DNA of 64,000 bases from Candidatus Aceula meridiana (GCA_030765185.1 JAVCDE010000003.1:38-64037); one strand, 5' to 3'. Positions 48,634 through 52,368 are shown, numbered from the stretch's first letter. Program-made: numbers and translations. The notes: generated by a model not told the origin, from the sequence alone.

Positions 48634-50226
48634 ATGAAAAAAAAGACGATAAAACAAAAAGGATTGCAGGAGTGCCTTGAAAAGCTTTTAACGCTTGGTA
48701 AGAGCAAAGGCTTTTTGACTTACGACGAGGTCAATGATACACTCGCAAAAGATGTCGAGTCTTCCGATGAAATCGATCAAGTTTTTGATTCGCTTGAGAC
48801 GAAGGGAATCAAGATTGTTGATTCTGCGCCCGACAAAGAAGAAGAGCTTGAATCTGGTCCTCGCGCTAAGGATCTTAAGCGTATCACAGACGAGCAGACG
48901 AGCGAACCTGTTTCTTATGGGGATAAGTTTATTCCGCTTGATGATCCTGTAAAAATGTATCTTAAACAGATGGGATCGATTTCACTTTTGACTCGCGAAA
49001 AAGAAATTCTTTTAGCTAAAAAAATCGAGGCTGCAGAAATAAAATTTGCTGAGGCTCTTTTTAAAATGGCATTTGCGCGTACGGAAGCTATGGGGATGAT
49101 TAATAAAATCTTGAATGAAGAAATTAATTTTGAAGACATTATCAAAGACGTTCTCGAGCGCCGCAACAAGTTGATTCGCGATTTAAAAAGACTTTTGCAC
49201 AAGGCCCGTCATTCACGTAAAGGCTCTGATCAGTCCGCAACAATTATTGCTCAATTTAAGCTAACCTCCACGGTTAATGAAGGCCTTGTGATTCGCGCTA
49301 AAGACATTATTAAGAAAATTGACCGGATTGACCGAACGCTTAAAAGCCGTAAAAAGATTCCGAAAGTGACTGAGCTGCGTAAAGAGAGAACCCAGCTTTT
49401 AAAGGAATTAGGCGAGCCTCTTAAGCGCGCTAAGGACTTGATGCGTATTACGCGTATGCGTCAGGCAAAGTTTAATCGTGCGAAAAAGGCATTGGTCGAA
49501 GCAAACTTAAGGCTTGTTGTCAGTATTGCCAAGAAATATATTAACCGTGGTCTATCTTTTCTTGATCTTATTCAGGAAGGCAACATGGGCTTGATTCGCG
49601 CTGTTGAAAAGTTTGAATATCAACGCGGGTATAAATTTTCAACCTATGCGACATGGTGGATTCGTCAGGCGATTACGCGCTCTATTGCAGATCAGGCAAG
49701 AACAATTCGCATTCCTGTTCACATGACAGAAACGATTAACAAAATTATTCGTGTTTCGAGATTGTTCGTTCAGGACAGCGGCCGTGAGCCAACTCCAAAA
49801 GAGATTGCTAAACAAGTGAAGCTTCCTGTGGTTAAGGTTAAGGAGATTTTAAAAATTTCTCAGGTGCCGATTTCCTTGCAAACGCCTATTGGCGATGAAG
49901 GGGATACGCATTTTGGCGATTTTATTGAAGATAAAAAAGCGGTTTCACCGGCTAATGCTACTGTGCATTCAATGTTAAAAGAAGAAATCATCGAAGTTCT
50001 GCAGACTTTAGACAGCCGCGAGCGCCAGATTTTAGAATTGCGCTTCGGCATCCAAGATGGCTCGACAAGGACGCTAGAAGAGGTTGGAAGTGTTTTTCGA
50101 GTAACTCGTGAACGCGTCCGTCAGATAGAATCTAAGGCTCTTCGAAAGTTACGCCATCCTACACGCTCAAGAAGACTTAAAACTTTCTTAGATATGACTG
50201 TAAAAGAGAGCGAGGGACTTCTTTAA
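48634..50226 (+). CDS. rpoD: RNA polymerase sigma factor RpoD (sigma-70)
   Basis: Regions 1.2-4.2 including [27 protein letters not shown]. Confidence 0.95.
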
Positions 50227-50254
50227 GAGTCAAAAGGATTATGTTTTAGTTAAA

Positions 50255-50290
50255 GGGCCTATTCCTGCATGCAGAATAGGCCCTTTTTTT
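50255..50290 (+). terminator. Rho-independent terminator after rpoD (GGGCCTATT...AATAGGCCC plus T7)
   Basis: 9-bp GC-rich stem, palindromic loop, followed by TTTTTTT. Confidence 0.8.
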
Positions 50291-50522
50291 GTCTTAAAGT
50301 ACTTAGTTTCTCTGTGTAAAAAGGTGCTAGTCAATGCTCCAAAAATTTGGTATACTTTACTTTCTGATTTTATATTTGACCCTAAATTTTACATTGGCAT
50401 TTTTTACTATTTCAAGTTAAAATGCCAATGCAAAACGCCTTTGGTGGGGGTTTACTCCGCAAGTCGCAACAAAGGTGCGATGCTGCGGCCCTTCGGACGG
50501 ATTTTTTAATATAAAATCCGGG

Positions 50523-50549
50523 TTGATTAACTATATATACTAGTATAAT
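50523..50549 (+). promoter_or_regulatory. Candidate promoter for the tRNA pair (TTGATT-N15-TATAAT)
   Basis: Hexamers read in sequence about 23 nt upstream of the tRNA 5' end; spacer is short. Confidence 0.4.
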
Positions 50550-50572
50550 ATGTTATAAGTTTAAGTTCATGC

Positions 50573-50647
50573 GGGCCCATAGCTCAGTCTGGTTAGAGCA
50601 GTTGACTCATAATCAATTGGTCCCAGGTTCAAGTCCTGGTGGGCCCA
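50573..50647 (+). tRNA. tRNA with CAT anticodon (elongator tRNA-Met, or tRNA-Ile2 if lysidinylated); CCA not encoded
   Basis: Cloverleaf folded by hand: acceptor GGGCCCA/TGGGCCC, D-stem GCTC/GAGC, anticodon loop CTCATAA, T-arm CCAGG-TTCAAGT-CCTGG. Confidence 0.8.
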
Positions 50648-50656
50648 GTTAAATAG

Positions 50657-50733
50657 GGGCGCATAGCTCAGCTGGTTAGAGTGCTGCCCTCACATGGCAG
50701 AGGTCGAAGGTTCGAGTCCTTCTGTGCCCACCA
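50657..50733 (+). tRNA. tRNA-Val (CAC anticodon), CCA encoded
   Basis: Acceptor GGGCGCA/TGTGCCC, anticodon stem-loop CTGCC-CTCACAT-GGCAG, T-arm GAAGG-TTCGAGT-CCTTC, 3' ACCA. Confidence 0.8.
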
Positions 50734-50759: not shown

Positions 50760-51485
50760 ATGACATCAAAATCCGCAAAAGACCAGATTATTAAGCTTGT
50801 TGAACTTCAAAAATTTGATACAGAGATTTATCAGTACAATAAGGAACTTAAAGAGGGCCCTGAGCGCCTCCAAGAGATTAAGATCCAATTTGAAGCAAAA
50901 AAGCAAATCTTAAAAGAATTTGATGAGAGGACTAAATCGAAACAGCTTGAGCGCAAGGAAAAAGAAGTTGACCTCCAGGCCAAGGAAGATGAAATTGTTA
51001 AATCTAATAATCATCTATCACAGCTAAAAACTAATAAAGAATATAAAGCTAAGCTGACAGAGATTGAGAATATTAAAGCTGATAAGTCAATTATTGAAGA
51101 AAAAATTCTTATTCTTTTTGACGAAGTTGATAAGATAAAAGATCAGTTTGAGAAGGAAAAGGTTCTTTTGGCAGAGGAAGAAAAGAATTACATTGCAGAG
51201 AAAAAACAGATTGAAGATTTCATGAAAGAGCTTGAGGAGAAGGTTAAGCTTCTTGAGAATAAACGAAAACAAACAGCTGTGGACATTGACGCAAATGCTT
51301 TAAGCCGTTATGAACGTATTTTAAAGGGAAAAGATGGTTTGGCGATTGTGAAAGTTGAAAATGGTTCTTGCACCGGATGCTATATGAATGTTCCTGCACA
51401 GCAAGTTAATCAAATTAAGAAGCATGAAAATCTTATTTATTGTGAAATGTGTGCCCGTATTCTTTATATCGAGGAAGACCTTTGA
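50760..51485 (+). CDS. Zinc-ribbon domain protein, COG1579 family (coiled coil plus C-terminal C4 zinc ribbon)
   Basis: Long coiled coil then NGSCTGCYMNVPAQQVNQIKKHENLIYCEMCARILY. Confidence 0.7.
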   Translation: MTSKSAKDQIIKLVELQKFDTEIYQYNKELKEGPERLQEIKIQFEAKKQILKEFDERTKSKQLERKEKEVDLQAKEDEIVKSNNHLSQLKTNKEYKAKLTEIENIKADKSIIEEKILILFDEVDKIKDQFEKEKVLLAEEEKNYIAEKKQIEDFMKELEEKVKLLENKRKQTAVDIDANALSRYERILKGKDGLAIVKVENGSCTGCYMNVPAQQVNQIKKHENLIYCEMCARILYIEEDL

Positions 51486-51961
51486 GTAAGACATTAAAAA
51501 TATTTATTGATGGTGCATGCCGTGGAAATCCTGGTCCTGCAGGGATTGGTGTTGTTATCCTAGAGGGGAAAAAAGTTTTAAAAGAGATTTCTAAACCTAT
51601 TGGTGAAGCGACTAACAATATTGCTGAATATTCAGCGCTTATTTTTAGCCTTATTGAATCGATAGCTTTAAAGGCCGAAAAAATTCAGATTTGTTCTGAT
51701 AGTGAACTTGTTTGTCGACAGCTTGGCGGAAAATATAAAATTAAGAATTCAAAATTAAAGTTTCTTTACGATGAAGCCATCGCGCTGTTTAAGTGTTTTA
51801 AGTCTGTTGAGATTAAACATATTCCACGCGAGGAAAACAAGCAAGCCGATAGGCTTGCGACAGGTTCTTTAAAAGATATAAAGAGCAGCCTAGATGATCG
51901 CCCCGAAGTCTATCTCTTTGGGGAGGAAAGTCCGAGCTCCAAAGGATATGCATCCCGATAA
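51482..51961 (+). CDS. rnhA: Ribonuclease HI
   Basis: IFIDGACRGNPGPAGIGVVI ... IPREENKQADRLA RNase H motifs; TTG start overlapping the upstream stop; last 27 codons run into the rnpB gene. Confidence 0.7.
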   Translation: MSKTLKIFIDGACRGNPGPAGIGVVILEGKKVLKEISKPIGEATNNIAEYSALIFSLIESIALKAEKIQICSDSELVCRQLGGKYKIKNSKLKFLYDEAIALFKCFKSVEIKHIPREENKQADRLATGSLKDIKSSLDDRPEVYLFGEESPSSKGYASR

Positions 51962-52242
51962 TGCGGGACACCTTGGCATCTGTCGAGGGAGGATTAGAGC
52001 CACAGTGACGATGCCTTTGCCTTTGGCAAAGGAGTGAAACGCGCAATCTCTGCATGGAGCAAGGCCAAATAGGGGGAGACGCTGCCTTTAACAGCAGCGA
52101 CGAAGTGGTCCGCTTCGTCATCATTTCCGGGTAGGCCGCAAGAGTCAAGGGAGTAATTCCTTGAGTTAGTCAAATGATCATTGACCTCGCCCATAAAAAA
52201 TCGAGGGAAACAGAACTCGGCTTATGGGCTGCTCTTTTGATT
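51880..52242 (+). ncRNA. rnpB: RNase P RNA (bacterial type A)
   Basis: Universally conserved P4 and flanking blocks read directly: GGAGGAAAGTCCGAGCTCC (about 51922-51940), GGAGCAAGGCCAAATAGGGGG, GGGAAACAGAACTCGGCTTATGGG; P1 pairing AAAGAGCAGCC (51882-51893) with GGCTGCTCTTT (about 52228-52238); compensatory CCGAG/CTCGG in P4. Confidence 0.8.
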
Positions 52243-52368
52243 CATCGAGATATTTTAAGGGTTTCTTACTCGATGAATCATCCTTAAAGTCCAAAGGACT
52301 TAAGGGCTCAGAAGTTTTTAAAACAGATAAACAAGCATTCAAGCAAAAAAATAAGGGAGGATTCAAAC

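Follow-up and report, generated by a model that had tools for sequence, protein, structure and literature searches.

A bacterial type A RNase P RNA gene entered by the RNase HI reading frame in Omnitrophota

The window, a 64,000-nucleotide stretch of DNA from Candidatus Aceula meridiana (GCA_030765185.1 JAVCDE010000003.1:38-64037), carries an rnpB gene on the plus strand at 51880-52239. On sequence evidence both its identity and its boundaries are established: it encodes an RNase P RNA of bacterial type A that lacks P13/P14. The reading frame of the RNase HI-type gene upstream (rnhA) continues into this RNA and ends inside it. Comparison of related loci similarly established that the overlap is inherited over a large clade of Omnitrophota in a single fixed frame. 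We consider it likely that the whole account given below holds, in which a type A RNA follows an rnhA gene with a missing stop, the overlap is inherited, the extra protein tail is a passenger and the RNA is processed from a single transcript.

When the whole window was scanned with Rfam (cmscan), the model for bacterial type A RNase P RNA (RF00010) matched 51882-52239 (+) with 147.9 bits (E 1.3e-45), compared to a gathering score of 100, and this was the sole ribozyme match. The match spans model positions 1-367 of 367 and is not truncated, and the core motifs and helices of the model are all kept in the window RNA. An earlier note made from the sequence alone had claimed a type A RNase P RNA gene at this place and had proposed RF00010 as the check; the score is above threshold over the full model and bears the claim out. 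The three signature blocks on which that note was built lie where it placed them, GGAGGAAAGTCCGAGCTCC at 51922-51940, GGAGCAAGGCCAAATAGGGGG at 52057-52077 and ACAGAACTCGGCTTATGGG at 52210-52228. The label P10-12 given to the middle block was wrong: GGAGCAAGGCCAAATAGG (GGAGCAAGGCCAAAUAGG) comprises the 3' side of P5/P7 together with P15. The proposed P1 helix pairs AAAGAGCAGCCU at 51880-51891 with GGGCUGCUCUUU at 52226-52237 through 12 base pairs (duplex energy -22 kcal/mol). If P1 sets the ends, the gene runs from 51880 to 52237; with the end of the full-length RF00010 alignment it extends to 52239, giving an RNA of about 358-360 nt. Two antisense ORFs at 51813-52148 (-; 111 aa) and 51994-52194 (-; 66 aa), the latter wholly inside rnpB, are almost certainly spurious, as had been supposed.

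Alignment to the model assigned helices P1-P12 and P15-P18 to the window RNA. Downstream of P1, the 5' strand of P2 (GAUGAUC, 51893-51899) pairs with 52176-52182 (GAUCAUU), and P3 forms a hairpin at 51902-51922 (51902-51908 with 51916-51922), both strands of which lie within the RNase H ORF. The 5' strand of P4, GAGGAAAGUCCG (51923-51934, conserved region I), is translated by the ORF as E-E-S-P. Its 3' strand, ACAGAACUCGGCUUA (52210-52224, conserved region V), was placed by the model alignment and by aligned relatives. All 8 pairs of the P4 pseudoknot strands (GAGGAAAGUCC with ACAGAAC.CGGCUUA, 51923-51934/52210-52224) were found in 48 of 48 relatives. The P4 5' strand is followed in order by P5, P7, P8, P9, P10/P11 and a short P12. 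From there J12/13 (GUGAAA) is joined directly to the P11 3' strand, and the 43 positions of the model that lie between the two and make up P13/P14 are skipped with 0 nt inserted. Because the P13/P14 stack that is a mark of type A is missing, the window RNA is classed as a P13/P14-less type A variant rather than as a canonical member. The P15-P17 arm contains an extra hairpin (GCUGCC...GCAGC). By sequence match, the CGGGUAGG stretch in CCGGGUAGGCC (52127-52137) aligns to CGGGUa of the model at the P16/P15 junction, and by this sequence criterion the P15-P16 internal loop with the GGU for the 3'-CCA of tRNA is present. A GUAA loop of the GNRA type caps P18 near 52153-52156, and a P19-like hairpin stands just before the 3' strand of P4.

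The gene that runs into this RNA lies at 51482-51961 (+) and consists of 159 codons and a stop. Its product matched Pfam RVT_3 over residues 9-127 (E 2.1e-23; 83 bits, cut-off 21.6) and Pfam RNase_H (E 3.3e-14; 53.7 bits, cut-off 25.8), with overall Pfam coverage of residues 4-127. Residues D10, E49, D73 and D123 were invariant in 29 homologues, giving the DEDD set; we take these to be the active-site acids of RNase HI. Scores against the NCBIfam RNase H families did not reach the equivalog cut-offs (best 126.8 bits against 326 for PRK07238). We infer that TTG at 51482 is the start codon. Homologues begin with MSK or LSK at the same point, and the TTG overlaps the TGA stop of the preceding gene (TTGA, 51482-51485) at a place where close relatives have ATGA.

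No in-frame stop precedes the RNA gene in the RNase HI ORF, and the first stop is the TAA at 51959-51961, which falls in loop L8 of the aligned RNA. The overlap is therefore 80 nt when counted from the Rfam start at 51882 and 82 nt (26 codons) when counted from P1 at 51880, in agreement with the earlier placement of the RNA 5' end about 80 nt inside the reading frame. The doubly used stretch (51880-51961; RNase H codons 133/134-159 and the stop) takes in the 5' strands of P1 and P2, all of P3, the 5' strand of P4, P5, J5/7, P7 and the 5' half of P8. All codons for residues 134-159 (KSSLDDRPEVYLFGEESPSSKGYASR) lie within rnpB. In an AlphaFold2 model the folded RNase H domain ends near residue 128-134, with the last helix at 116-128. 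The pLDDT was 87-98 up to residue 130 and then fell to 55, 50 and 41 in the tail, which is thus predicted to be disordered and to lie outside the RNase H fold. Pfam coverage does not extend past residue 127, and the C-terminal 26 residues are absent from the proteins of Candidatus Aceula lacicola (L201) and of other phyla.

The tail is widespread among close homologues. In a sample of the 120 closest RNase H homologues (54-92% identical, mostly 150-160 aa; the named ones are from Omnitrophota), 108 end in ...[GA]EESPSSxG, which is the translation of GAGGAAAGUCCGAGCUCC, the P4 strand. The earlier note had held that a C-terminal extension shared by RNase H orthologues would imply different RNA boundaries. 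The extension is indeed shared, and the deduction is invalid, because homologues have it in common as the translation of a conserved RNA and not because the RNA begins elsewhere; covariation in P1, P2 and P3, described below, puts the RNA boundary inside the ORF.

To survey the loci without regard to frame, a DNA pattern consisting of NNIAEY codons, a spacer of 276-306 nt and GAGGAAAGTCCG was used, and 120 metagenome loci were recovered. Removal of duplicates and addition of the window and L001 gave 116 unique loci. At 58 of these the ORF reads through P4 in the GEESPSS frame, the arrangement seen in the window; 57 of them stop 24 nt after the start of P4 (P4+24) and the window stops at P4+36. 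The ORF passes P4 in a different frame at 2 loci, stops inside P1-P3 at 31, stops at or just before P1 at 24 and has an anomalous end at 1 (L116). Since 58 loci share the layout, the overlap in the window is no accident of assembly; on this survey a large Omnitrophota clade commonly has this arrangement. In a neighbor-joining tree of the RNase H domain, a tree that is short and noisy, 47 of the 48 read-through loci included formed one block, within which about five secondary early stops were scattered. In a separate scan of genome contigs that used the RNase H alignment, most of the matches listed came from other phyla and at least four were Omnitrophota loci.

The position of the stop codon varies among relatives. 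A. lacicola resembles the window in gene order (tRNA, zinc-ribbon gene, RNase H, rnpB, yebC, ruvC, ruvA, scpB), in its RNase H, which is 69% identical, and in an rnpB that is also without P13/P14. Unlike the window, it has no read-through: its RNase H ends ..AAA GAT TAA, and by the Rfam alignment base 1 of rnpB is the last A of that TAA. Where A. lacicola has its stop, the window reads ..AAA GAT ATA AAG AGC.., which is 2 nt longer and contains no stop. In L203, the relative closest to the window (92% protein identity), the ORF ends at GGA TAA, 24 nt past the start of P4. Compared to L203, the window has a private 1-nt deletion (one A lost, GGAT-ATGC), and its stop has moved 12 nt to the TAA in L8. 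In the P0061 group an insertion of about 57 nt in P3 brings its own stop, and the protein tail reads ..GPAERGSQSQP; in the P0116 group a 38-nt insertion in P3 shifts the frame and the tail becomes ..RKVRAPKDNAPC. On these comparisons the stop falls wherever the RNA sequence first supplies one. These P3 insertions of about 57 and 38 nt lie at L205:1315-1385 and L206:1700-1750, respectively, and the RNase H ORF reads into them. That the tail ..GPAERGSQSQP represents a divergent P4 was considered and ruled out, as it is the translation of the insertion of about 57 nt. The codon at P4+24 varied among the 57 loci that stop there (TAA 45, TAG 7, TGA 5) and was never TGG; this is no evidence of selection for a stop at that position, since only about 0.6 TGG would be expected.

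The two genes belong to a compact cluster. At its head are tRNA-Met(CAT) at 50573-50647 (+; RF00005, 73.4 bits) and tRNA-Val(CAC) at 50657-50733 (+; RF00005, 68.9 bits), both also called by ARAGORN, and tRNAs occupy the same position in L001-L003, L007, L013, L201 and L203. A 241-aa zinc-ribbon coiled-coil protein (Zn_ribbon_9, CdsZ/CT398-like) is encoded next at 50760-51485 (+). It matched Pfam PF02591 with E 6.8e-11 and NCBIfam NF047363 (CdsZ) with E 6.2e-22 and 78.3 bits, below the curated cut-off of 275. As neither this protein nor the RNase H reached the NCBIfam cut-offs, only general family names are justified for them. A zinc-ribbon gene is also found upstream in L201, L203, L205 and L206. 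Spacing is tight throughout, with 26 nt between tRNA-Val and the zinc-ribbon gene, a 4-nt overlap of that gene with rnhA, and rnhA running into rnpB. L007, L013 and L006 (Syntrophales, Smithellaceae and an unclassified MAG) have genes in the order tRNA, zinc-ribbon gene, RNase H, rnpB as well, with RNase H-rnpB gaps of 192, 155 and 20 nt, respectively. Occurrence of the same order without the overlap in Syntrophales and Smithellaceae indicates that the cluster is older than the overlap, and its presence in all three loci indicates that the linkage of RNase H to rnpB is older than Omnitrophota.

Promoter-like sites were found at 50328-50423, upstream of the tRNAs. The 345-nt gap in which they lie (50227-50572), between a 530-aa ORF (48634-50226) and tRNA-Met, has several such sites and a doubtful 61-aa ORF. 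The gene syntenic to the 530-aa ORF in L201 encodes sigma-70 domains, and Aceula has an acetolactate decarboxylase gene in the gap before the tRNA that has no counterpart in the window. Directly 3' of P1, at 52238-52280 (+), is a hairpin with a 12-bp stem (-25 kcal/mol; z = -4.26 relative to shuffles). No T run follows this hairpin, and L203 and L201 lack it at this place, their P1 3' strands continuing into a U-rich stretch instead; it may mark a transcription or processing end.

The cluster from the tRNAs through the zinc-ribbon gene and rnhA to rnpB is probably one transcript out of which the RNA is cut. Transcription would begin upstream of the tRNAs and proceed through tRNA-Met, tRNA-Val, the zinc-ribbon gene, rnhA and rnpB, and endonucleolytic cuts would release the RNase P RNA (and the tRNAs) from the polycistronic transcript. 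Ribosomes on rnhA, which is without a stop of its own, would run on into rnpB, continue through the 5' strands of P1, P2, P3 and P4 and end at the TAA in L8, making a protein longer by 26 residues. Because a cut at P1 would take the stop codon off the rnhA message, any one transcript would have to become either message or ribozyme; it could yield a complete rnhA message or a mature RNase P RNA, not both.

If rnpB instead had its own promoter within the 3' end of rnhA, the two genes would be transcribed separately and the overlap would be irrelevant to maturation of the RNA. We consider this unlikely. One site in the window is plausible, TTGCGA-16 nt-TATAAA at 51855-51882, and the hairpin at 52238-52280 could terminate either type of transcript; however, the site would place the start of transcription near 51889, inside P1. 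A sigma-70-like promoter (at least 9 of 12 positions) placed for a start at P1 was found in 0 of 60 read-through loci, a count that is weak evidence because Omnitrophota promoters may differ from the consensus. In class A relatives there is no -10-like element upstream of P1. In favor of the single processed transcript are the promoter count, the tight gene spacing, the promoter-like sites upstream of the tRNAs and the gene order shared with Syntrophales and Smithellaceae.

The bases shared by the two genes were analyzed for RNA and protein constraints. In 48 read-through sequences, 7 of 7 pairs in P2 and 7 of 8 pairs in P3 had changed on both sides, with 99.7% and 90.6% of cells paired, respectively. 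For P2 and P3 together, double-sided changes were seen at 14 of 15 pairs. The share of paired cells was 96.6%, compared to 86.3% when shuffled and 20-49% when slid. The 5' strand of P4 was invariant in 48 of 48 aligned relatives; 100% of cells were paired, and one pair was compensated (A-U to G-C). P1 was omitted from the formal pair count, because MAFFT placed no gap at the junction after CGGCUUA, whose length varies by 1-3 nt, and cognate strands were compared to non-cognate strands instead. Cognate 5'/3' duplexes averaged -17.7 kcal/mol and non-cognate duplexes -10.3 kcal/mol (50 related loci, 37 distinct strand sequences). Because the duplex predictions often over-extend into the A/U-rich flanks, exact 5' ends were not taken from them. 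Within the limits of sequence comparison, it is established that RNA structure strongly constrains the shared bases.

Constraint on the protein was much harder to see. The P1-P3 codons, compared along class-specific minimum spanning trees, had a pN/pS of 0.70 in the real frame and 0.81 and 1.03 in the control frames; for 60 nt taken from the RNase H domain the values were 0.17 in the real frame and 1.20 and 3.19 in the control frames. Analysis of all read-through loci together, in which length classes are mixed and P3 is misaligned, left this conclusion unchanged. Entropy by codon position showed no periodicity in classes A and A'. Class B showed a weak trend (0.61, 0.82 and 0.90) and a pN/pS of 0.60, compared to about 0.9. 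There is thus no clear protein-level selection on the residues encoded by P1-P3, where such selection appears weak or absent. Taken with the covariation and the predicted disorder, the pN/pS values lead us to read the tail as a passenger of RNA-constrained sequence, probably a tolerated one, and the overlap as passive.

One property of the overlap counts against this reading: conservation of frame in the clade is greater than would be expected of a purely neutral tail. Distances of 39, 42, 45, 48, 51 and 57 nt from the AD codons to P2 go with 30 nt from P2 to P4, and distances of 41, 44, 50 and 53 nt go with 28 or 31 nt, so that P4 is always read in the same frame, with P1 and P2 in either of two phases. 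In the read-through clade the spacer and P3 mostly change in length by multiples of 3, and in-frame changes outnumber the frameshifted relatives that were seen (L164, L148, L099, P0116, L153, L184). The pattern is a hint of purifying selection that keeps the frame, though common descent with mild selection against aberrant tails would explain it equally well.

A stronger form of the argument is that translation of rnhA through P4 in a fixed frame has itself been selected, either because passage of ribosomes across P1-P4 is coupled to, and exclusive of, folding and 5' maturation of the RNase P RNA, or because the GEESPSS peptide is functional. Coupling of this kind would tie the output of RNase HI to that of RNase P RNA, and a regulatory overlap would be a new mode of control for a housekeeping ribozyme. 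The frame counts speak for it (58 unique read-through loci in one frame, 2 in other frames), as do at least 10 variants in spacer or P3 length that differ by multiples of 3 and the convergence of both P1/P2 phase classes on one P4 frame, the classes being interleaved in the noisy tree. However, the read-through loci are essentially one clade, so the sharing of frame is largely common descent. The weak constraint on the P1-P3 residues and the disorder predicted for the tail also argue against selection, as do the lineages that stop at P1 (Aceula), stop inside P1-P3 (31 loci) or are frameshifted by P3 insertions, and the window itself is without the usual stop. We therefore judge a selected overlap improbable, more so than a separate promoter. 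Least credible by far is that the overlap is not genuine, whether because a frameshift in assembly or sequencing took away the true RNase H stop or because the RNA gene is a decayed copy: the private 1-nt deletion does lie at the usual stop site, but it shifts the stop by only 12 nt, read-through recurs at 58 independent loci from metagenomes and across over 100 protein clusters, and the RNA matches the whole model with every core motif and helix in place.

The gene is thus of a known kind, and the coding overlap across a clade appears to be the undescribed part: a literature search of partial coverage turned up no account of rnhA overlapping rnpB, none of Omnitrophota RNase P RNA, and nothing relevant on CT398/Rv2228c beside rnpB or on co-transcription of rnpB. 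In dual-function RNAs, for example RNAIII/hld and SgrS/SgrT, the small ORF is complete and functions in its own right. They resemble the present case in that one sequence is both a structured RNA and a translated frame; here, in contrast, it is the tail of an upstream enzyme gene that enters a housekeeping ribozyme, without clear selection on the protein. In Thermus, rpmH and rnpA reportedly overlap in two reading frames, an arrangement that Feltens et al. are said to have described in PNAS in 2003. That overlap is likewise conserved, involves the gene of an RNase P subunit and belongs to a compact genome, but it is protein-protein whereas the one in the window is protein-RNA.

In many related bacteria, then, a universally conserved ribozyme core would also be read as protein, and the same P1/P2 bases are read in two frames in sister groups. 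The latter is a natural test of RNA and protein constraints on one sequence, and the RNA appears to dominate. The cluster is also a likely case of an RNase P RNA cut from an mRNA-tRNA polycistron. For annotation, gene callers that ignore RNA genes add a tail of 20-26 residues to RNase H, which spreads through protein databases as apparent conservation (GEESPSS), and leave antisense ORFs over rnpB.

As an RNA, the window gene shares P1-P5, P7-P12, P15-P18 and the P4 pseudoknot with bacterial type A (RF00010; E. coli M1 RNA, Thermotoga maritima P RNA) and differs in the missing P13/P14, the extra P15-P17 hairpin, the P19-like hairpin and the coding use of its first 80 nt or so. The P13/P14 stack in the specificity domain separates type A from type B (PMC1874661), and archaeal type A RNase P RNAs are without both P13/P14 and P18 (PMC4919922). 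The window RNA has the absence of P13/P14 in common with the archaeal RNAs; it alone keeps P18, and it scores with the bacterial family and lies in a bacterial genome, so the resemblance is one of form only. The gap at P13/P14 was present in 5 of 5 Omnitrophota RNAs examined (the window at 52040-52046, L203, L001, L002 and L003), with 0-1 nt inserted and P18 kept. The clade as a whole looks to have type A RNAs whose specificity domain is reduced, and it supplies bacterial RNase P RNAs without P13/P14. Insertions of 88-93 nt against 15 model positions were noted in the P9 region of other Omnitrophota rnpB genes (L002:3022-3114 and L003:2994-3081), and the P15-P17 arm of rnpB at L205:1625-1780 contains about 150 nt of inserted AT-rich sequence in which TTCGGATTT / AAATCCGAA motifs are repeated.
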